Shown here piece after piece: positions 4,996 through 18,117 of a stretch of DNA of 64,000 nt. The stretch's first letter is position 1. Each line of letters opens with the position of its first letter. The position numbers were made by a program, and so were the translations under genes. The notes under the pieces were generated by a model. It ran no database searches and had not been told where the DNA came from. It was given only the letters and a program-made list of their open reading frames with translations. Source of the stretch: a virus. Taxonomy: Duplodnaviria; Caudoviricetes. The DNA lies in IMG/VR virus record IMGVR_UViG_3300050123_000025, positions 300 to 64,299 of that record, one strand, 5' to 3'.

Positions 4996-5421
4996 TTATT
5001 CCTCCTTTGGTTTCAGGTATCGTGAAACAAACTCGCAAGCATTTTCCACATCTTCTAAAATCTGCGTTAGACTAAATGTCTTGCCCTCATCCCAACAATG
5101 ACGGTAATCACAGCCGACTTTTATTATTCTGCCATCTGAGTCTAAAAGTTGTTTACTGTAATAAGTGATGCCACAATGGAATGGGATTTCATTCAGAAAC
5201 TCCGACTTATAATAATCTGGACTTTCATATTCACTACTACCAAATTGTTTTAGTGTCGCAGGTATCCATAATGATTCTGCTAATTTAGCATCCTTTAAAT
5301 TGTCAAGAGCTATATACAGATACCAAGTCCACCCGTAATAATCGTGTGGTTGTTTAATTTCAAAAGAAACATTATTATGTGTTCCGTAATTCATAGTTAG
5401 CGTGTTAAATTTTTTTATCAT
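4996..5421 (-). CDS. Hypothetical phage protein
   Basis: AGGAG RBS before MIKKF; FHCGITY and GCDYRHCWD motifs. Confidence 0.7.
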   Translation of the reverse strand: MIKKFNTLTMNYGTHNNVSFEIKQPHDYYGWTWYLYIALDNLKDAKLAESLWIPATLKQFGSSEYESPDYYKSEFLNEIPFHCGITYYSKQLLDSDGRIIKVGCDYRHCWDEGKTFSLTQILEDVENACEFVSRYLKPKEE

Positions 5422-8674: not shown

Positions 8675-8759
8675 TGGTGCGGGCGAGAGGTTTCGAACCT
8701 CCACGTCTTTCGACACCAGATCCTAAGTCTGGCATGTCTGCCAATTCCACCACGCCCGC
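8675..8759 (-). tRNA. tRNA-Leu (anticodon TAG), complete with CCA; likely overlaps attP
   Basis: GCGGGCG acceptor, GGAATTGGCAGAC D-arm, CCAGA-CTTAGGA-TCTGG anticodon arm, long variable arm, GGTTCGAAA T-loop, ACCA end. Confidence 0.93.
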
Positions 8760-8998: not shown

Positions 8999-9253
8999 AT
9001 GTTCGCAAAATCCAAAGACAGTCTGTTAATTATGGCAATGGTAATTATTGGGCCATACGTTTTAGAGCTATTCCGGTTTCCGCTTGAGGAGCATCATAAA
9101 GTTGGTTTTTTCTTCATTGGCCTTGCTGCTATCCTGCAAATTTGGTTACAGCAAACATCCGAGATTGACAAAATAGGGCAGGTGTTCGAAGCCAAAAAAG
9201 TTGATGTAGGCGGGAAGTTCCCACGGCTCGTAAAGGAGGCCAGTAATGATTAA
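8999..9253 (+). CDS. Two-TM membrane protein, probable N-terminal anchor of FtsK
   Basis: AAGGAGG RBS; two hydrophobic helices; 8-nt overlap with FtsK. Confidence 0.7.
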   Translation: MFAKSKDSLLIMAMVIIGPYVLELFRFPLEEHHKVGFFFIGLAAILQIWLQQTSEIDKIGQVFEAKKVDVGGKFPRLVKEASND

Positions 9254-10211
9254 GAATCGGTATAGTTATATTCTCCCCATCGGTCTTGCTCCCAGTAAAA
9301 TAGAGGGTTGCAGGGAAGAGCTTGAAGCAGCTCTCGGTGGTCATTGCGATTTTGAAATTAATGGCCGGGTGGTTACAATTACCGCCTATAAAGGCAAATT
9401 GAAAAAGCGGATTAAGTACCGCCGCCCGGAAGTTGATGAAGGCTTAATTATCCCGATTGGTTACGGCATGGAGGGTGAGTTAATAATTCTAGATATGTCC
9501 TCTGACTCGCATTGCTATCTGCTCGCTGGCGGTAATCCTGGGACAGGGAAAAGCGTATTTCTAAATGGCTGTATTGACTGTATAAGCCAGTATCCGTCTG
9601 AACATGTGAGGTTTGTTTTTATTGACATGAAAATGGGCGTGGAGCTGGGGAGTTGGTATAGTCTACCGCACAAATGGTTAACAGCAGAAGATCCAACAAG
9701 GCCCGAACTAAAGCATGTATTAACTCAATTGTTAGCAGAGATTAAAAAGCGTATGAAGCTATTCAAGGCGGCAGGGGTCAAAAAAATATCAGATTACAAT
9801 AGGGCTTTCCCCGATAAAAAAATGAACTATATTATGGTTATTGTGGACGAATACGCGGAGATAAAAAACAGTGACAATGGGGACGAATATGAAGTGCTCA
9901 TGAAGTCTGCTTTACAGATTGGCAGGGCTGCGGGATTAAGAGCGATTGTGGCAACTCAAAGACCCACCACGGATTGTATTTCCGGCACAGTTAAAGCGGT
10001 GTTCACTGATCGCATAGCCTTTGCGGTATCAAGCGCGTTAAATAGCCGGGTGATACTAGATTCCGATGGAGCCGAGAAACTTCCTAATGATGTACCTGGC
10101 AGGGCGATATTCCTCACGGGCTCACGATTTCGAGAAGTGCAAGTCATGGACTACTCGTCCCCAGTTCTACAGGTTATACCTGATACGGAATACATGGAGT
10201 CCACGGTCTAA
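9246..10211 (+). CDS. FtsK/SpoIIIE-family ATPase
   Basis: AGGNPGTGKS, IDMKMGVE, VIVDEYAE, GRAAG, ATQRP, ILDSDGAEKL, PGRAI. Confidence 0.92.
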   Translation: MIKNRYSYILPIGLAPSKIEGCREELEAALGGHCDFEINGRVVTITAYKGKLKKRIKYRRPEVDEGLIIPIGYGMEGELIILDMSSDSHCYLLAGGNPGTGKSVFLNGCIDCISQYPSEHVRFVFIDMKMGVELGSWYSLPHKWLTAEDPTRPELKHVLTQLLAEIKKRMKLFKAAGVKKISDYNRAFPDKKMNYIMVIVDEYAEIKNSDNGDEYEVLMKSALQIGRAAGLRAIVATQRPTTDCISGTVKAVFTDRIAFAVSSALNSRVILDSDGAEKLPNDVPGRAIFLTGSRFREVQVMDYSSPVLQVIPDTEYMESTV

Positions 10212-10330: not shown

Positions 10331-10951
10331 ATGCAGGCATACGGCAAGAGTAGGGATATAAAAGTATTGGAGGGGCTAGATGGGTTTAGATACATGACTA
10401 CCCCGCAAATTGCAGCTTTATATTTTACTACCATAAAAAAGCAAGAGTTCCGAATTAAGAAAACCTGTGAGCGAATGAAACGGATGTTTGATCGGGGCTA
10501 TGTCCAGCGATTTAGGTTCCCGTCCGAGCCTTATATATTTACTACCGGCGGGAACAAGTACAACCGACAAATACAACATTATTTAATGATCGTGGATTGC
10601 TGGATTACTTTGCAAAAATTAAGGCCATCTGGTGGGTCGCTGAATTACCAGGTGGAAATTAAACAGGATGGCGTACAAACTGATTTAGCCGTGGAATATA
10701 CGAACAATTTCCGAGGTGAGAAGAAGTTATATTGGATTGAAGTGGAGAATGAATCAACGGGGGACATAACAGAGAAGATTAAGAATTATGAGGGGCTACA
10801 GTGGTCAAGGCAGGTTAATAACTTGCCGGCGGGTGCATTGGTCATCGTCTACAAGAAACGTGCAACCTTAGCGAAACTACAAGGTGTTAGTTTTGAGATG
10901 CCGGTGAAATTGATACACTTTAGCGAGTTTGCGGAAAAATGGGAATGGTAG
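10331..10951 (+). CDS. Replication-relaxation (Replic_Relax)-like protein: wHTH + PD-(D/E)xK
   Basis: RDIKVLEGLDGFRYMTTPQIAALYF; HYL; TDLAV...WIEVEN. Confidence 0.75.
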   Translation: MQAYGKSRDIKVLEGLDGFRYMTTPQIAALYFTTIKKQEFRIKKTCERMKRMFDRGYVQRFRFPSEPYIFTTGGNKYNRQIQHYLMIVDCWITLQKLRPSGGSLNYQVEIKQDGVQTDLAVEYTNNFRGEKKLYWIEVENESTGDITEKIKNYEGLQWSRQVNNLPAGALVIVYKKRATLAKLQGVSFEMPVKLIHFSEFAEKWEW

Positions 10952-11021
10952 TCTTTGAAGCGGTTACATTGTAACAAATATAAAAAGAGAGAGCAAAAGC
11001 GCAGGCGAAACTGAAAGGAGA

Positions 11022-11255
11022 TTGTGGAATATGACAGGATTAGCGGTATTTATCGTTGCTTGCTTGGGTTTACAGGTGATACTTCATCGGGACAAGAATG
11101 ACCGTAAGAGATTTAAAGAGATTGGAATATTGATTGAAGCAGAAAAGAAAAGGCGACTCAAAGAGGAAAAACTTAGGACTGTCCGCATAAAACACCCTAA
11201 AGTAATTTACCTCGATGATTTTAAAGCCGCCCTTCCCACACAAAGAATAATATAA
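11022..11255 (+). CDS. Small single-TM protein
   Basis: AAGGAG RBS, N-terminal hydrophobic helix. Confidence 0.6.
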   Translation: MWNMTGLAVFIVACLGLQVILHRDKNDRKRFKEIGILIEAEKKRRLKEEKLRTVRIKHPKVIYLDDFKAALPTQRII

Positions 11256-11337
11256 TATGACCTGCGTTCTCTCCTGGGGTTTAAGGGTTTATCCCGCCCC
11301 ATACATATCATACCCCACTCACACATAATTATTCACA

Positions 11338-11369
11338 AAAAAAAATAAGCCCCATGTGCGGGGCTTTTA
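11338..11369. terminator. Bidirectional terminator between convergent units
   Basis: A-tract, AAGCCCC-ATGTGC-GGGGCTT, T-tract. Confidence 0.7.
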
Positions 11370-11371
11370 AC

Positions 11372-12052
11372 TTACAACCAATCTGTCTCCTTAACTTTTT
11401 TCCTTAAGTCAACGTCGCAAATTTCTGTATAAATTGTTGTAGTTTGAATATTCATATGCCCGAGCAAATGTTGTACTTCTCGGATATTATACCCGATATT
11501 GAGTAATGTTGTTGCAAAAGTATGGCGGAAATTGTGAGGGTGTACTTTGGTTCGTTGCCGCCCATCTTGTATATATACTTTTGCCCTTGCCCCTATCTCG
11601 TAACACATTTCCCTGACGTTACGGTCGTGTAGTCTACCGCCCTTTCGGTTACAAAAATACCAGTTAGATTCGGGCCGTATGGCCTCCCATACTTCTAGGG
11701 CGGCTTTAAGTTGTTCCCCTATAGGTATGTGCCTGTCAGCGTTGCATTTGCCTTCCTGCACGTATATGTCACCCTCTATCATGTCAACATCCGACTTAGA
11801 TAGATCGCATAGTTCATTCAGCCTTAACCCTGCCCGTAAAAAAGTTTGAATTATCGCGGCTTGGCGAATCCCTGTTGCTGTATCTGCATTAATTGCTGCC
11901 AAATATTTTTCTATTTGAGGTGGCTTTAGGATCTTGGGAAGTTTTCGGGTCTTATGCTTCTTTGCTAGCTCCGGCTGGCTTAGGTCGATACCCAGCAACT
12001 CCGCTACCTGCTGGGCTTTCTCGGGGTCTAGTTTGTTTAGGTCTATGTTCAT
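11372..12052 (-). CDS. Second tyrosine recombinase (short, Xer/resolvase-like)
   Basis: AGLRLNE, EGK, HPHNFRH, LLGH, TTTIY; lacks N-terminal arm/SAM domain. Confidence 0.9.
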   Translation of the reverse strand: MNIDLNKLDPEKAQQVAELLGIDLSQPELAKKHKTRKLPKILKPPQIEKYLAAINADTATGIRQAAIIQTFLRAGLRLNELCDLSKSDVDMIEGDIYVQEGKCNADRHIPIGEQLKAALEVWEAIRPESNWYFCNRKGGRLHDRNVREMCYEIGARAKVYIQDGRQRTKVHPHNFRHTFATTLLNIGYNIREVQHLLGHMNIQTTTIYTEICDVDLRKKVKETDWL

Positions 12053-12071
12053 GGTTTGGCCTCCTTACTTG

Positions 12072-12100
12072 CGCCGGGATTTACCGCCCGGCTCGGCGGG
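12072..12100 (-). repeat. Pseudoknot-like intergenic repeat, copy 4
   Basis: CCCGCCGA-GCCGGG-CGGTAAAT-CCCGGC-G then AAGTAAGGAGG. Confidence 0.7.
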
Positions 12101-12102
12101 AT

Positions 12103-12309
12103 CTATTTCGTTTCTTTTTTTATTGCTTTTTCCAAACACTCGGGGCATAGATTTTTACCCTTGTAATTCCTAAATCCTTTTTGTAATGCCCATTCTATGG
12201 AATTTGTTCTATCATCGGCATCTGCACCCGGACGACCGCAGTCATCACAATTAATTAAATAGACTACATATTTATCTTTTGTATGCAGTTTTTTATTTCC
12301 TTTTCTCAT
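12103..12309 (-). CDS. Zn-ribbon protein
   Basis: CDDC...CPEC. Confidence 0.65.
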   Translation of the reverse strand: MRKGNKKLHTKDKYVVYLINCDDCGRPGADADDRTNSIEWALQKGFRNYKGKNLCPECLEKAIKKETK

Positions 12310-13114
12310 AATCTAATCCTCCCTTTCTACCTGCTAACTTAGAGACTATTTCCTTCGCCAGCCTTTCCGCATCATGGCCCCTGTATCTCTGCCATGCTCC
12401 GTTGGTAGGGCTCCAGCGGAATCCGTTCTTTTTTAACTGTTCTCTAATGTTTGCGTCCGGCTTATTAGGGAATATGATCTGTAGCCTTTGAGCTTCGAGG
12501 TTGTCAATTATTTTGATGCCGTTAATTTCGACTGTCTGCTCCTCGATGGTGGTAGTTGCCGCCTGTTCCGCCAGTCGCTCAAGGTGCGCAATTCTGTCCC
12601 TAATACCTTTAATTCTGCCGTTGCCGTTACTTGTCATCCATGCCGGGTGAGGCTCTTGCCCTTCTTTGCGCAATTGTTTGTTTTCAGCTATTAAAGCGGC
12701 GTGGTTCTCTAATTCCTTGGCTAACTTTTCCTGCAGTTTTTCGATGGCGTTCGCATCGTCAGACTTGATTATTTTGTCACCGTTTACTATTGCCCATATT
12801 TTACTGTCAATGTCTTTAATATCGTCATATTCAGCCCATAACGTACGCTCGCGGCTTAAATATTTTTCATGCGCCCTCATGTTATAGTTTGATGGCCCGG
12901 AAATCATCATACTTACATGACTGGCTCCGTTAGAGTTGTATTTATTTGTCCAGCTGGCATAATTCGTTGTATAGCGGGCTAATAAGCTGTCTAAACGGGT
13001 TTGCGCTTCGGGTGATACTTTAGCCTTGGCCTGCTCTATTTTCTCCCTAGCGTCTTGGATGGTTGCGTTATATTCTGCGGTTGCGCTGCCTTCGTTGTAG
13101 TCACTAAAACTCAT
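12293..13114 (-). CDS. DUF3560-like protein (N-terminus possibly frameshifted, real start 13152)
   Basis: SFSDYNEGSATAEY, MISGPSNYN, RLQIIFPNKPD...GFRWSPTNGAWQR. Confidence 0.7.
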   Translation of the reverse strand: MSFSDYNEGSATAEYNATIQDAREKIEQAKAKVSPEAQTRLDSLLARYTTNYASWTNKYNSNGASHVSMMISGPSNYNMRAHEKYLSRERTLWAEYDDIKDIDSKIWAIVNGDKIIKSDDANAIEKLQEKLAKELENHAALIAENKQLRKEGQEPHPAWMTSNGNGRIKGIRDRIAHLERLAEQAATTTIEEQTVEINGIKIIDNLEAQRLQIIFPNKPDANIREQLKKNGFRWSPTNGAWQRYRGHDAERLAKEIVSKLAGRKGGLDYEKRK

Positions 13115-13151
13115 GTTTTCTTTGCTCTACGTGCCAATTGTTCGTTAATCA

Positions 13152-13658
13152 TTAGTCAAGCACCTCCCGGTTAAATTCCTGCCGGTCATGTATCGGGATG
13201 GGGTAGTTGTTAACTTCCCCAAAACGACTATCGCAAGAATAAATAAAATTGCCGCCCATCATCCAGCCGCTTCCCGTTGGTCTGTCTAATGGTTCACAGT
13301 GGATATAAGGATTACCGCAAATCTTACGCCTTACAAGTTTAACGCCCGGCGCATCTTCTGACGGTTCATACATTTGCGGAATGCCTTCGCCTATAACGGT
13401 TAATTGTTTTACTGTTGAGGATATGCCGTGATTAGTGCAATCGCCTAGTCTCTGCTCTTTAAATACGCTTACAATCATACCCATTGGAGGGCGTTCTACT
13501 TTTATACACTTCTGCATGTTGTCCTCTGGTTCTCCGTCTGCGCCGGTTCCAAGGTTAAAGATTCTATTCAGAAAATAAGCCTGTGCGTCCTCAAAGGTTC
13601 CATTAATTCGAGTGGTAATTGTGTCTCCGTTTTCATAAATACGTTTTACAGTTATCAT
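13152..13658 (-). CDS. Two-domain hypothetical phage early protein
   Basis: ITTRINGT...YF; DCTNHGISS; MMGGNF...DSRF...PIPIHDR. Confidence 0.75.
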   Translation of the reverse strand: MITVKRIYENGDTITTRINGTFEDAQAYFLNRIFNLGTGADGEPEDNMQKCIKVERPPMGMIVSVFKEQRLGDCTNHGISSTVKQLTVIGEGIPQMYEPSEDAPGVKLVRRKICGNPYIHCEPLDRPTGSGWMMGGNFIYSCDSRFGEVNNYPIPIHDRQEFNREVLD

Positions 13659-13769
13659 TTTCCCTACCGCCTTTCAATTCTGTTTATTTTGCGGTAGAAT
13701 GAGCTGTGGGGCTCTCTACCGCTTGCCGGTGTTGTGTTCTCTGGATTAGGCTGGTGTTAGCGCATCGGC

Positions 13770-14048
13770 CTAATCCGCATATTGGGTATTTACCTGAGCC
13801 AGTATGCTCCACGGAGTTATAACCGTATCCTTTAAAAATAGATGTTTCGGTAAATTCTCCCTCCCGCCGTTCATTTCGATATAGTCATTTCCAAAAATAA
13901 ACCGCCTATAAAGAGTCAAGACATAATCGGCCCGGGGTTCAATTTTAGCTATCAGCTCTGACAAGTTTTCCTGATTAAAGTCGCTGATTCTCTTAATTAA
14001 GTCTCCATCCTGAGTGGTGATTTGTACCTGATATTGTGTATTATTCAT
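13770..14048 (-). CDS. Hypothetical protein
   Basis: ATGA overlap with upstream gene. Confidence 0.6.
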   Translation of the reverse strand: MNNTQYQVQITTQDGDLIKRISDFNQENLSELIAKIEPRADYVLTLYRRFIFGNDYIEMNGGRENLPKHLFLKDTVITPWSILAQVNTQYAD

Positions 14049-14227
14049 TCCGCTTTCCCTCCAATTCCTTTAGTTCTCCAACACTGCCCGCCGACCGGGT
14101 CTCTGTGTGCATTGTCGCACCGGGGACACCAATAAATTATGTAACATTCTCCTAAAACAAAGTCCGGCGGGGTGATATATTCCTCCTCAAAGTCTTCGGC
14201 CTCAAATTGACAAAACGGACACAACAT
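14045..14227 (-). CDS. Zn-ribbon protein
   Basis: CPFC...CPRC; AGGAGG RBS. Confidence 0.65.
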   Translation of the reverse strand: MLCPFCQFEAEDFEEEYITPPDFVLGECYIIYWCPRCDNAHRDPVGGQCWRTKGIGGKAE

Positions 14228-14441
14228 AAAAATCCCTCCTATTTATTTTCCCTATTTTCTTGATACCCTACCTCGCTCCTTTTTAAAGCTGTCGGACTTC
14301 TTTTTCTAAGTCTTCAATCATGCTCCCGGTTTACTATGACCTCTCCGCCTTGCCTACTTCGCCAGGGCTGCTGCATCGCCATTAGATGCGGGGTGTCTGG
14401 CTTTCGGCTGCGGAGAGGAGTTAAGCTTTTCGGGGCTCTGG

Positions 14442-14464
14442 CGCCGGCTGGCCCGGCTGGCCTT
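14442..14464 (-). repeat. Pseudoknot-like intergenic repeat, copy 3
   Basis: AAGGCCA-GCCGG-GCCAG-CCGGC-G. Confidence 0.7.
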
Positions 14465-14480
14465 GGGTGCCACTGAGGGA

Positions 14481-14687
14481 TTAATTAACTGATATTGCTC
14501 CCCCTAATCCAATTAAAGGATTTGGCGCTTTTGAATAGCCTCTTGCTCGGGTGTTCCTGTTAATCCAGATTAACGCCTCAAATCTTGTCATGCTATTAAA
14601 ATCAGGGACTATGGTTTTACGGCTTTTTAATTTATAGGTATATTCTCCATAGGTTACTGTTGGCATTGGATTTGTTCTCTTCATCAT
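14481..14687 (-). CDS. Hypothetical protein
   Basis: ORF in early operon. Confidence 0.65.
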   Translation of the reverse strand: MMKRTNPMPTVTYGEYTYKLKSRKTIVPDFNSMTRFEALIWINRNTRARGYSKAPNPLIGLGGAISVN

Positions 14688-14709
14688 CCTCGCCGCCTCG
14701 CTTTCGTTT

Positions 14710-14734
14710 CGCCGGACTGGCTCCGGCGGGCCTT
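14710..14734 (-). repeat. Pseudoknot-like intergenic repeat, copy 2
   Basis: AAGGCCC-GCCGG-AGCCAGT-CCGGC-G. Confidence 0.7.
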
Positions 14735-14762
14735 CCTCCCCGGTATCGGCTGTTGTCTTGTG

Positions 14763-14957
14763 TCATATCGTTTCCTTCCAACGCAATGCCCTTGGATGGC
14801 TTTTTGCTTTCAACTCTTTTGCTTTAATGCAAAATATTCTTTGCAAGAAGGTTGGTTGTAATGTGAAATACCAATTGTCGGGGCTATAATACCTAGTTAC
14901 TGTTCCCCATGTTTTAAAATATTTCGAATAAAACCTCATTCCTGGCTTAATCTTCAT
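14763..14957 (-). CDS. Hypothetical protein
   Basis: GGGAGG RBS. Confidence 0.6.
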   Translation of the reverse strand: MKIKPGMRFYSKYFKTWGTVTRYYSPDNWYFTLQPTFLQRIFCIKAKELKAKSHPRALRWKETI

Positions 14958-14971
14958 TCCTATTCCTCCCT

Positions 14972-15298
14972 TTATAATCCTAAAGATATAAGTTTACGCC
15001 TGCCGTAATATTTAACTGCTCCTAACTTTTTGCCTTCTGCTTTAGTTAACACTTTATCTATCATATCTCGGATTGGTTTATCTACTCCCCTGCTAAAATC
15101 CTTACTTGTAATAGTTTCAAGCATTTCTAATGTGGACTTCAATGCTTCATACATATCGGGGGCGGTGACCATCAGCCCTATATCTCCGCCCTCTCCATAT
15201 ATACCACTAGAATCGGGTTCAACCCAAAAAACAGGTTTTCCATTACTGTCTAAAATATTATTGCCATTTCTTTCCCACGGTCCTTTTGTGTATTCCAT
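14972..15298 (-). CDS. Hypothetical phage protein (TxGPW...APDMYEAL type)
   Basis: YTKGPW and TAPDMYEALK motifs; AAGGAGG RBS. Confidence 0.75.
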   Translation of the reverse strand: MEYTKGPWERNGNNILDSNGKPVFWVEPDSSGIYGEGGDIGLMVTAPDMYEALKSTLEMLETITSKDFSRGVDKPIRDMIDKVLTKAEGKKLGAVKYYGRRKLISLGL

Positions 15299-15318
15299 TA
15301 TTTAGCCTCCTTACTTCT

Positions 15319-15343
15319 CGCCGGATAAGCCCCCGGCTGGGCT
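15319..15343 (-). repeat. Pseudoknot-like intergenic repeat, copy 1
   Basis: AAGCCCA-GCCGG-GGCTTAT-CCGGC-G then AGAAGTAAGGAGG. Confidence 0.7.
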
Positions 15344-15349
15344 TGCGTG

Positions 15350-15619
15350 TTAATTGAATCTTTTATTTACATATTCTTCAGTGATGTACCTTTCAGCTAT
15401 TTGCTGTGCGTCTAAACCTTCACCGTGATTGTATTTTTGACCTTTAATATTAAAGATGTTTATTATTTCTTCTCTTGTATTCGCAAAGTCAGTATAAACA
15501 GTTTCAGCATATTCTTCGGTATGTTCGTATCTGTATGCAGGCCATGATTTTAATTTACTATTTTCTCTCCGCAAAGCTTCGAACCGTTCGACCTTTTTAA
15601 GTAATTTAGCTTTTTCCAT
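15350..15619 (-). CDS. Hypothetical protein, first gene of early operon
   Basis: GAGG RBS downstream of strong promoter. Confidence 0.65.
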   Translation of the reverse strand: MEKAKLLKKVERFEALRRENSKLKSWPAYRYEHTEEYAETVYTDFANTREEIINIFNIKGQKYNHGEGLDAQQIAERYITEEYVNKRFN

Positions 15620-15714
15620 TCCGTCCGCCTCACTTTCATTTTATTTAAAATCTTTATGCAGTTCTCAAAGAGCTTTTTTCGGTTTGTTGCCGGTTGGTTT
15701 GTTTCCGTGATTTA

Positions 15715-15743
15715 AATATAAACCTTTGTTTTCGCCTTGTCAA
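15715..15743 (-). promoter_or_regulatory. Strong SigA-type early promoter
   Basis: TTGACA-17 bp-TATATT. Confidence 0.8.
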
Positions 15744-16061
15744 GTGTTTTGGGATAAATATTTTTATGTGCTTAAAACCTGCATTGTGTCGGGCTTTGCT
15801 CGCCACCTAGTCTTAGTATATGCAAATTATTTTAGGATTATTATAAAAAAGTTTTGGAATTTTATTAAAATTATAGCAAGTCGCAGGAATGGCTATGTAG
15901 TGGGGATTGTGGGAGTTAGTGCTCGATTACCTCCAATTTTTAGCCGCTCACCAGCCGTTTTGGAATTTTTTTTGTGCTATTGTAATATCATAGGCAAGAT
16001 AAATAAAGCATCGGATTTGCGTCTGGTGTTTTTTATTGCCTAAAATTAAATAAGAAAGAGG

Positions 16062-16751
16062 TTGGCTTTAGATATGCCGACTAGAATTACAACGTATGAT
16101 CAGGCGTTTAGGACAATTAATATGCCCTATAATGAAAAAGCAATTACCATTATTAAGGAATTGGAAAAAGAGGGTCATACTGAAAGAAGTATTTGCTATG
16201 CAATATGGCGGGACAGACCAAACCTATTTAAGCATAATAGAGATCAAAATTTTTGGGATTATTTTATTAATAGAATTAAGGTATGGTCCTGGGCTACCGA
16301 TGACCCACGTTGGGAATTACATTATAGAAAAAAAGTTGAAACGGAAAAAGCAGCAGCGGAACAAGAAAGATTACGCGAAGAAATGAACGCAAGAACTTTT
16401 AAAAAACCAACTTGCCATCTATATAATGGTTTTATTTATTTTATACAGGGTGAGAATGGCGGGCCAATAAAAATAGGTTTTGCGAAAAACATTAAAGATC
16501 GCATTAAAACCTTACAAACCGGCTATCCTGATGTGCTTAAATTGTTGCTAGCATTCCCGGGTAACCTTGAAATTGAACAAGAGATGCACAAACAATTTAA
16601 GCAGTATAAGTTAAATGGTGAATGGTTTAATCCGTTACCGGAATTAATAGATAAAATAAAAGAATTTACCAAGTATCATATTGAATTCGCTACCCCTAAT
16701 AAAGAAAATCCATTAAGAAGTTATATGAGACAAATGGCCGGAACTAATTAG
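16062..16751 (+). CDS. GIY-YIG (T5orf172/MUG113-like) domain protein
   Basis: FIYFIQ...IKIGF...RIKTLQTG...EMHKQF...GEWF. Confidence 0.8.
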   Translation: MALDMPTRITTYDQAFRTINMPYNEKAITIIKELEKEGHTERSICYAIWRDRPNLFKHNRDQNFWDYFINRIKVWSWATDDPRWELHYRKKVETEKAAAEQERLREEMNARTFKKPTCHLYNGFIYFIQGENGGPIKIGFAKNIKDRIKTLQTGYPDVLKLLLAFPGNLEIEQEMHKQFKQYKLNGEWFNPLPELIDKIKEFTKYHIEFATPNKENPLRSYMRQMAGTN

Positions 16752-17101: not shown

Positions 17102-17503
17102 ATGGGTAAAAAAATATCAGATTATCAGCAGGAAATTGAATTATTGAAAGAGGAAGTTAATAGACTTACTAAACTAGTCGATAAATTAAGTAAACCAACT
17201 AAAACTAAACTTCCGATTCCGCCCTATATAATAAAGGAATCAATTAAAGTTAATGAAGAATGGCACAGTCGCGAATATCCCTATGAAGCTTATGACCAAA
17301 AACGCAATATAATGATGTTTAGTATTGTAGAGAATAAATGGATAAGATACGCGCGAGCCGTGTATATCGTTGAGCATGGAATAATACCAAAAGAATATTC
17401 GGTCTATCAACTGGACGGTGATAAAAACAATTATAACATAGATAACCTGGCTGCTATGGATATTGACTCATGGAACGCTATGCGCTCTCAAGAGGTGTAT
17501 TAA
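17102..17503 (+). CDS. Coiled coil + degenerate HNH-like protein
   Basis: RAVY...HGIIP...LDGDKNNYNIDNL; catalytic His residues replaced. Confidence 0.65.
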   Translation: MGKKISDYQQEIELLKEEVNRLTKLVDKLSKPTKTKLPIPPYIIKESIKVNEEWHSREYPYEAYDQKRNIMMFSIVENKWIRYARAVYIVEHGIIPKEYSVYQLDGDKNNYNIDNLAAMDIDSWNAMRSQEVY

Positions 17504-17980: not shown

Positions 17981-18117
17981 AAGAGGTTCCCTTTATATTG
18001 ATTTCTTTATTCTCTTTGCTTACTTTCTCTTTTTCTTTGAGGATTTAAAAAACAAAAAATATTTAGCCGGTGAGAATTAACTTGCCGGCTTTAGTATTGA
18101 TTATTGGAGGTGAATAA

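Follow-up and report, generated by a model that had tools for sequence, protein, structure and literature searches.

A candidate H-type pseudoknot motif at the gene junctions of a phage early operon

INTRODUCTION

The preQ1-I riboswitch is a very small H-type pseudoknot set against a Shine–Dalgarno sequence (SD), and the IncI-alpha repZ message carries a pseudoknot next to its ribosome-binding site that acts in translation. In Bacillus subtilis, RNase Y cuts the cggR-gapA and glnRA messages after the first gene, and the amount of cleaved product depends on the pairing of a hairpin a short way downstream, provided that RNase J1 is active (PMC11780869); purified RNase J1 can also be halted by a folded, pseudoknotted viral RNA (PMC5760640). 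Here we describe a short element that occurs four times on the minus strand of a 64,000-nt stretch of DNA from a tailed phage (Caudoviricetes; IMG/VR record IMGVR_UViG_3300050123_000025, positions 300–64,299), hereafter the window, which covers nearly the entire 64.3-kb virus record. Like the Bacillus hairpins (PMC11780869), it is an intercistronic, stable structure lying directly 5' of the next cistron. Because its two helices covary among relatives, its pairing exceeds that of permuted partners and Rfam holds no match, we regard it as a real, apparently undescribed H-type pseudoknot motif of 19–30 nt. The fold is well supported by sequence comparison, and its mechanism is open to rival readings.

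RESULTS

Four elements in the early operon

Each element (the knot) consists of two interleaved helices, S1 and S2, whose arms and linkers follow in the order S1a, L1, S2a, L2, S1b, L3 and S2b. The copies in the window are as follows.

Copy 1, 15320–15344, minus strand: S1a 15344–15339, L1 15338, S2a 15337–15333, S1b 15332–15327, L3 15326–15325, S2b 15324–15320
Copy 2, 14710–14732, minus strand: S1a 14732–14730, L1 14729–14728, S2a 14727–14723, L2 14722, S1b 14721–14719, L3 14718–14716, S2b 14715–14711
Copy 3, 14443–14462, minus strand: S1a 14462–14460, L1 14459–14458, S2a 14457–14453, S1b 14452–14450, L3 14449–14448, S2b 14447–14443
Copy 4, 12073–12097, minus strand: S1a 12097–12094, L1 12093, S2a 12092–12087, S1b 12086–12083, L3 12082–12079, S2b 12078–12073

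S2 is formed by GCCGG/CCGGC in copies 1, 2 and 3, with a sixth pair possible in copy 2 (14728/14710), and by GCCGGG/CCCGGC in copy 4. S1 is formed by AAGCC(C)/(G)GGCTT in copy 1, by GGC/GCC in copies 2 and 3, and by GCCG/CGGT with one G.T wobble (G.U in RNA) in copy 4. Copy 1 starts 5 nt past the stop codon of an 89-aa open reading frame (ORF) and is followed by an SD from 7 nt past S2b and a start codon at 15298, and copy 4 starts 5 nt past the stop codon of a 68-aa ORF, with an SD 6 nt past S2b and the recombinase start at 12052. Both continue into AAGTAAGGAGGC and then the start codon, so that they have a 12-nt tail in common in addition to S2. Copy 2 lies between 64-aa and 68-aa ORFs. Copy 3 has no SD behind it, and a structured non-coding stretch of ~215 nt comes next. 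The first-pass annotation of this DNA had proposed four such elements, and its minus-strand sites, its pairings, the placement of every copy between ORFs and the shared tail of copies 1 and 4 all proved correct; the GCCGG/CCGGC stem that it called invariant is constant within the window and varies in the relatives.

The pattern GCCGGN{1,14}CCGGC occurs eight times in the window against 0.27 expected, and 0/100 shuffles reach eight; chance is excluded as the source of the window hairpins. The other four sites (5454, 18066, 19433 and 21295) show no upstream pairing or lie inside ORFs. A covariance model (R1) built on the hairpin together with its flanking bases, a check that the annotation had suggested, was run over the whole window with filters off, and its top four matches were the four copies (copy 1, 40.4 bits; copy 3, 31.5 bits; copy 2, 30.3 bits; copy 4, 11.7 bits). 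The remaining matches scored at most 9.6 bits with E above 3, copy 4 reached 38.7 bits with a second model (R2), and in the R1 scan all copies in the window were restricted to the early operon. Pairing of 3 bp between a loop and the bases upstream arises by chance in 114/541 control GC hairpins (~21%), so that four out of four was already unlikely, though unconvincing alone.

A shared architecture in related loci

No match was found when positions 11000–16000 were searched by blastn against the phage collection. Relatives were gathered with the 273-aa operon product as bait, which gave 51 viral loci, 29 loci from bacterial assemblies and 80 metagenome loci; the 168-aa product, used likewise, found no relatives in viral contigs. 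The 273-aa product is the sole operon product with close relatives in the collected loci, at 25–75% identity. By comparison, the recombinase matches six related loci at 25–27% identity, the 168-aa product matches one, and the remaining seven products match none. On this comparison the operon reads as a fast-changing region of small ORFans. The assemblies closest to the 273-aa gene belong to Oscillospiraceae, an unclassified Bacillota and Desulfosporosinus, and together with ribosome-binding sites of AGGAGG type they point to a Bacillota host.

The order shared among the loci is S1a, 1–2 nt, S2a, 0–1 nt, S1b, 2–6 nt rich in A, S2b, 0–7 nt and a strong SD. The 47 unique elements of a curated list, which was picked by eye from a relaxed scan and therefore describes the family without testing it, comprise 30 distinct S1 and 27 distinct S2 helices. 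In this set the elements are 19–30 nt long, S2 has 4–7 bp and S1 3–6 bp, S1a ends 1–2 nt upstream of the hairpin, L1 is 1–2 nt and often A, L2 is 0–1 nt, and L3 is 2–6 nt with 55% A. An A stands at –1 in 35/47 elements and at –2 in 30/47, purines follow S2b, and 14 G.U pairs occur on the sense strand. No conserved unpaired letter was found in the set, L1, L2 and L3 all varying in length and sequence.

S1 variants include AAGCCC/GGGCTT (copy 1), AAGGC/GCCTT, AGGCC/GGCTT, GGTC/GACC, AGGT/ACCT, GGCT/AGCC, GCG/CGC, GTG/CGC, GCCG/CGGC, GCCG/CGGT (copy 4), GCTG/CAGC, TGCC/GGCA and TAGC/GCTA. S2 varies in the same manner (GCCGG/CCGGC, GCCGGG/CCCGGC, GCCCGG/CCGGGC, GCTGG/CCAGC, GCAGGG/CCCTGC, GGCGG/CCGCC, GGTCGG/CCGACC and GTGACCG/CGGTCAC).

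Statistical support for both helices

A set unselected on S1 was drawn from low-GC loci and comprised every all-GC 5-bp hairpin with a loop of 5–14 nt that has an SD, a start codon and an ORF behind it (n = 64 unique). In the pseudoknot register, S1 reaches at least 3 bp in 28/64 and at least 4 bp in 16/64 of these hairpins, against 15.1 and 5.9 by permutation of partners, and 0/5000 permutations reach either 28 or 16. With the window copies removed, an S1 of at least 4 bp is found in 14 cases against 5.5 by permutation (1/5000), and an earlier version of the permutation test agreed. By comparison, 541 GC hairpins without an SD show no S1 excess over permutation. A generic helix score, which compared the loop with the upstream 12 nt, was dropped for its high background in favour of the register-constrained score used here.

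Pair counts were taken from alignments A4 and A5 alone, the MAFFT alignments A1–A3 having misplaced the S1 arms. In the gapless A4, whose six elements of identical geometry were selected for having S1, every cell pairs and 8/10 pairs change on both sides. In A5, which holds 29 distinct sequences and was aligned by a model that took S1 as pairs and S2 as sequence alone, 94.3% of cells pair against 77.2% in shuffled alignments, 8/10 pairs change on both sides and 0/500 shuffles match; sliding the partners lowers the pairing to 20–51%. By helix, S1 pairs at 94–100% and S2 at 96–100% across A5 and A4, S2 standing at 96% in A5. Non-seed R1 hits are also paired in S1 and include wobble and compensatory variants of both helices, and 22/22 R1 hits lie on the coding strand in loci oriented by the 273-aa gene. 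A pattern scan of IMG/VR that fixed just S2 and the SD returned 92 stretches, most of them in GC-rich phages and apparently chance matches or coding sequence; in low-GC phages it added new knots with S1 AGGTC/GACCT, GGTC/GACC, GCCG/CGGC, GGCC/GGCC and GCTG/CAGC.

As judged from these alignments, both helices are under compensatory change, in an H-type pseudoknot ordered S1a-S2a-S1b-S2b. Because the compensatory changes affect both helices and G.U pairs occur on the sense strand, selection acts on the RNA fold and not on DNA identity. The first-pass annotation had proposed a conserved, co-varying RNA element of pseudoknot topology, and the relatives, in keeping both helices by compensatory changes, bear this out. 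Rfam 15, a further check that it had named, gave no match at the gathering threshold (just a tRNA in the window); at E up to 10 over 11300–15800, no element was matched and the two weak hits were unrelated and away from the elements. Literature searches, in a library thin in subscription journals, returned no description of such a motif.

The hairpin alone might be real, the complementarity between its loop and the upstream bases being a by-product of GC-rich near-palindromes or of shared ancestry. The chance rate of ~21% among the control hairpins, the short GGC/GCC helices and marginal energies of copies 2 and 3, and the existence of a class of simple hairpins before an SD (below) would all be compatible with such an origin. 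This explanation nevertheless seems very unlikely, given that the excess over permutation is confined to SD-linked hairpins, that pairing collapses in the slid-partner controls, and that S1 variants containing A or U are found (GGTC/GACC, AGGT/ACCT, GGCT/AGCC, TAGC/GCTA and TTCT/AGAA).

Neighbouring genes change around the knot

The comparison of gene content between the repeats, which the annotation had also envisaged, shows that the flanking small ORFs all differ between relatives while the element persists, so that across relatives it precedes unrelated small ORFs. In complete relatives (65–68 kb, three with direct terminal repeats), each genome has its model hits within a single small region. 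Core identity of the knots ranges from 0.54 to 0.88 behind the same upstream gene end and from 0.56 to 0.74 before the same downstream gene, with a background of 0.61, and the knot sequence, on these figures, is tied to neither flanking gene. In one case, different knots and different downstream genes stand behind the same upstream gene end (L003 and L087 versus L183:2023).

Such an arrangement, the turnover of the small ORFs and the 12-nt tail plus S2 common to copies 1 and 4 would suit a role at the DNA level, in which the element is a short conserved linker for the recombinational shuffling of cassettes, like the T4 PeSLs or lambdoid boundary sequences. We consider this role quite unlikely, since it leaves aside the compensatory changes in both helices and the sense-strand G.U pairs, the knots are too diverse to offer long identical stretches, as the background core identity shows, and they come with neither a promoter nor a terminator. 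In a mosaic region such as this one, recombination could well take place at the knots as a by-product, and to that extent the crossover points suggested by the first-pass annotation survive; it cannot explain the covariation, which reveals selection on the fold.

A small ORF of ~45 aa, whose product begins MQVVLN, is found in several phages, always behind a knot, and the S1 and S2 letters of these knots differ.

MQVVLN ORF sites: L003:4934, L087:2268, L150:1174, L089:2264, L169 (reverse complement, 1184), L183:2669

A distant relative (L146) carries two knots, at 5081 and 7112, of the same architecture and of an unrelated sequence family, with S2 formed by GTGACCG or GTGACTG with CGGTCAC and S1 by either TGTTT/AGACA or TTCT/AGAA, one in each knot; both knots lead into ACGGAGGG and a start codon. 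A second class of element was seen in low-GC phages (L166, L178, L190, L193, L211 and L233), where an A/T-rich run and a plain GCCGG hairpin lead directly into GAAGGAGG. These hairpins have a loop of 5–6 nt and occupy the same place before the SD, without an S1 helix.

Operon and genomic setting

The operon that holds the four copies is delimited by the following features.

15715–15743, minus strand: sigma-70-like promoter, TTGACA, 17 nt, TATATT (11/12 consensus letters, identified by consensus match alone), 5' of the first operon ORF
11372–15619, minus strand: operon body of ten ORFs, in order 89, 108, 64, 68, 60, 92, 168, 273, 68 and 226 aa
11347–11366, minus strand: intrinsic terminator-like hairpin with a run of nine T, directly 3' of the recombinase gene

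The 226-aa product of the last gene (11372–12052) is the only one of the ten with a Pfam family, Phage_integrase (E 4.8e-39), in agreement with the recombinase that the annotation had placed at the operon end. The 273-aa product (12293–13114, minus strand) has no Pfam family and carries the PHROGs label 'primase' on its N-terminal half. Pseudoknots occupy 4/9 gene junctions of the operon, and four of the remaining five are overlaps or short gaps. The fifth knot-free junction (13659–13769, minus strand, 111 nt), between the 92-aa and 168-aa ORFs, holds two different hairpins, whose stems measure 9 bp and 6 bp by eye, neither of the pseudoknot type.

The final hairpin at 11366–11347 is the sole terminator-like site on the operon (minus) strand, a point that bears on two further functions raised by the annotation, an antitermination signal (nut- or put-like) and a decoy for type III toxins. 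Both kinds of system do employ small RNAs that fold as hairpins or pseudoknots. Here no terminator-like site lies between the promoter and the final terminator for an antitermination signal to act on, and the four sites stand at gene junctions, not in a leader. As for a decoy, ToxI-like elements are tandem repeats beside a ToxN-family gene; the present copies are not tandem, lying 268 to 2370 nt apart, their sequence is not conserved, and no ToxN-like or other toxin family occurs among the ten operon proteins. Both functions are therefore highly improbable, and neither proposal was retained.

Other roles were considered and rejected. A terminator is contradicted by the lack of a T-run after the stems and by the SD that follows at once. 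Knot-stimulated read-through of the stop codon was discarded for copy 1, where the ORFs share a frame, yet are separated by two in-frame stops. Pairing of S1b with the SD, as a switch, was likewise set aside, as most S1b arms are not complementary to GGAGG.

The stretch that follows copy 3 (14228–14442, minus strand, ~215 nt), 5' of the 60-aa ORF, is non-coding. A 253-nt piece that includes it (14228–14480) folds at –85.6 kcal/mol with a z-score of –3.0, and 0/200 shuffles are equally stable. The stretch may represent either a non-coding RNA of the phage or a leader that is long and structured; Rfam gave no match to 14228–14442, and blastn of the non-coding stretches 14228–14442, 13659–13769 and 15620–15725 against the collected related loci gave none.

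Outside the operon, the following were noted.

9246–10211 and 10331–10951, plus strand: genes for FtsK_SpoIIIE-domain and Replic_Relax-domain proteins, converging on the operon end; such proteins are commoner in plasmids and integrative elements than in phages
8675–8759, minus strand: tRNA-Leu gene with anticodon TAG, within the virus record
16062–16751 and 17102–17503, plus strand: genes for T5orf172/MUG113-domain and HNH_3-domain proteins, homing-endonuclease-like, across the divergent promoter region
18066–18089: GCCGG..CCGGC hairpin with a 14-nt loop, flanked by an A-run and a short T-run, which lies outside the pseudoknot family and may be a weak two-way terminator

DISCUSSION

We favour, with a probability of roughly 40%, a reading in which the knot stands as a barrier between cistrons and shields the 5' end of the one that follows. 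Among the functions proposed in the first-pass annotation, an exonuclease roadblock or processing site would fit the anatomy best. The knot would work mechanically and without sequence-specific recognition. Once the polycistronic RNA had been cleaved in the single-stranded segment that precedes the knot, or while it was decaying from the 5' end, the 5'-to-3' exonuclease RNase J of a Bacillota host would be stopped by the knot and the ribosome-bound SD in concert, and each downstream cistron would keep a protected 5' end. The same knot could halt 3'-to-5' decay into the upstream cistron. Since no particular sequence would be needed, such a knot could travel with any gene cassette in a fast-shuffling region.

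Several observations are consistent with this proposal. The absence of conserved unpaired letters, the free variation of helices and loops and the unrelated downstream genes argue for a steric or mechanical role over a ligand or a sequence-specific protein. For 5' protection in particular, an A-rich single-stranded stretch, usually ACAA-like, lies just 5' of the knot, S2b stands 0–7 nt from the SD, and the host phylum and the Bacillus and RNase J1 precedents cited in the Introduction agree. The plain GC hairpins that follow A/T runs at the same pre-SD place in other phages lend further support. Copy 3, which heads a non-coding stretch and not an SD, points to a role that is not confined to translation.

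Translational control is the main rival. The knot could couple or uncouple neighbouring cistrons, with the terminating ribosome melting S1, could insulate the SD from the sequence upstream, or could serve as a standby or enhancer structure bound at the 30S platform. Its spacing invites such a view: S1a mostly starts 5–9 nt past the upstream stop codon, S2b lies 0–7 nt and mostly 1–4 nt from the SD, the start codon follows 12–24 nt past S2b, and the element occurs solely where cistrons do not overlap. Moreover, T4 gene 32 and rpsO provide cases in which a pseudoknot beside the ribosome-binding site takes part in translation (PMC3014915). We nevertheless hold translational control to be a possibility on the doubtful side. 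The distance from stop codon to knot ranges from 2 to 27 nt, the SD is never part of either helix in the 47 curated elements, copy 3 has no SD, and in a weak case (L117) the SD lies ~27 nt away.

T4 RegA, gp32 and RegB act on early messages in operator-like fashion, and the knot might by analogy be an operator at which an RNA-binding protein, encoded by phage or host and acting in trans, turns the early cistrons off or on together. Several copies in one early operon, the frequent A at L1 and at –1 and –2, and two small zinc-ribbon-like ORFs inside the operon (Cys pairs seen by eye) could be taken in this sense. Such an operator is unlikely: helix sequence and loop length vary freely with no unpaired letter conserved, and the sole conserved neighbour, the 273-aa protein, had no match in 5/5 knot-bearing records of the pattern scan, in a search that had no positive control.

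Certain points weigh against the fold and the protective role as set out here. The relaxed scan, with 148 unique hits, includes many chance matches, 51/203 raw hits lying on the other strand, and A5 was fitted to S1 by construction, a bias of which S2 is free. In H-type pseudoknots, an L1 of 1–2 nt spans 5–7 bp and an L3 of at least 2–3 nt spans 3–4 bp; the loop lengths of the curated elements suit an S1 of 3–4 bp (41/47), and an S1 of 5–6 bp is found with an L3 of 2 nt in copy 1 and at L011:7385. Two nucleotides are probably too few for the full 5–6 bp, and with so short an L3 the outer A-U pairs may not form. A crude energy estimate, from ViennaRNA stacking energies and a pseudoknot penalty of 9.6 kcal/mol, favours the knot over the nested fold in copy 1 (–15.0 versus –9.7 kcal/mol) and copy 4 (–13.3 versus –10.9 kcal/mol); in copies 2 and 3, whose S1 has just 3 bp, it is marginal (–8.9 versus –10.5 and –9.1 versus –9.1 kcal/mol). 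Single-sequence minimum free energy z-scores of the four regions (–0.4 to +0.2) are not significant, a measure that is uninformative for such short GC-rich pieces.

The knot is also optional. Of the 40 unique junctions that follow the 273-aa gene in relatives with an identity of 45% or more, 9 carry a clear knot and one a weak knot, the other junctions having an immediate SD, different hairpins or terminators. The upstream stretch is A/C-rich (ACAA), unlike the AU-rich/GA context of B. subtilis RNase Y (PMC11780869), and 5' protection does not account for the use of a pseudoknot where, as in the Bacillus cases, a plain hairpin suffices as the stabiliser.

If its fold is confirmed, the motif would be among the smallest covariation-supported cis-acting RNA motifs, absent from Rfam 15 and recurring in ~65-kb phages with direct terminal repeats and in prophage-like Bacillota loci. 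It would then show how phages of hosts with RNase J and RNase Y preserve or tune single early messages without sequence-specific factors, and would account for the expression of newly shuffled ORFans in any gene neighbourhood. It would also offer a sequence-flexible pre-SD module of 20–30 nt, usable as an insulator or stabiliser part in Gram-positive synthetic operons.

Comparison with known systems

Integron attC sites are imperfect inverted repeats of 57–141 nt with conserved outer core sites. They were considered on account of the tyrosine recombinase at the operon end and rejected, the present elements being 19–30 nt and variable, with the recombinase downstream in the same orientation. 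The preQ1-I riboswitch is comparable in size and placement; the present knots have no Rfam match at E up to 10 and no conserved ligand-contact letters, and stand in several copies before unrelated genes. The T4 PeSLs are likewise short, repeated, structured elements between small non-essential ORFs in a hyperplastic early region of modular shuffling, and combine a sigma-70 promoter with a terminator stem-loop (PMC2839356). By comparison, no promoter-like site lies beside any copy on the operon strand here, and no T-run follows the stems.

The T4/T2 gene 32 leader knot is also an H-type pseudoknot of a phage mRNA, with two coaxial helices upstream of the ribosome-binding region (PMC3014915). 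It lies 67 nt upstream of the start codon behind an A+U-rich spacer and serves one gene as the operator for its own product (PMC3014915), whereas the present knot lies 12–24 nt from the start codon in multiple copies before unrelated genes. The exoribonuclease-resistant RNAs (xrRNAs) of flaviviruses and plant viruses are viral, pseudoknot-based and protein-independent mechanical blocks to 5'-to-3' decay that can stop RNase J1 in vitro (PMC5760640), a resistance that the present element may share. An xrRNA is a larger structure whose fold encircles its own 5' end as a ring, whereas the element described here is a minimal two-helix structure of 19–30 nt with no Rfam match. That the knots might be the first natural counterpart of xrRNAs in bacterial viruses, minimal and sequence-free 5' 'caps' that stall RNase J, are portable with horizontally acquired cassettes and provide every such cassette of the early region with a protected message independent of its context, is a doubtful proposition at present.

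With the RNase Y sites and 5'-stabilising hairpins of cggR-gapA and glnRA, the likeness extends to a dependence on pairing and not on sequence and to a host phylum that has both RNase Y and RNase J (PMC11780869). The differences are that the structure here is a pseudoknot, which occurs up to four times per operon, in a phage, and behind an ACAA-like stretch. Beyond the general class of intercistronic stabilising structures, the defining features of the families compared are not shared by the knot. Within that class, its anatomy suggests that its closest functional parallel would be the stabilising hairpins that follow RNase Y sites; a likeness to an xrRNA in miniature is conceivable.

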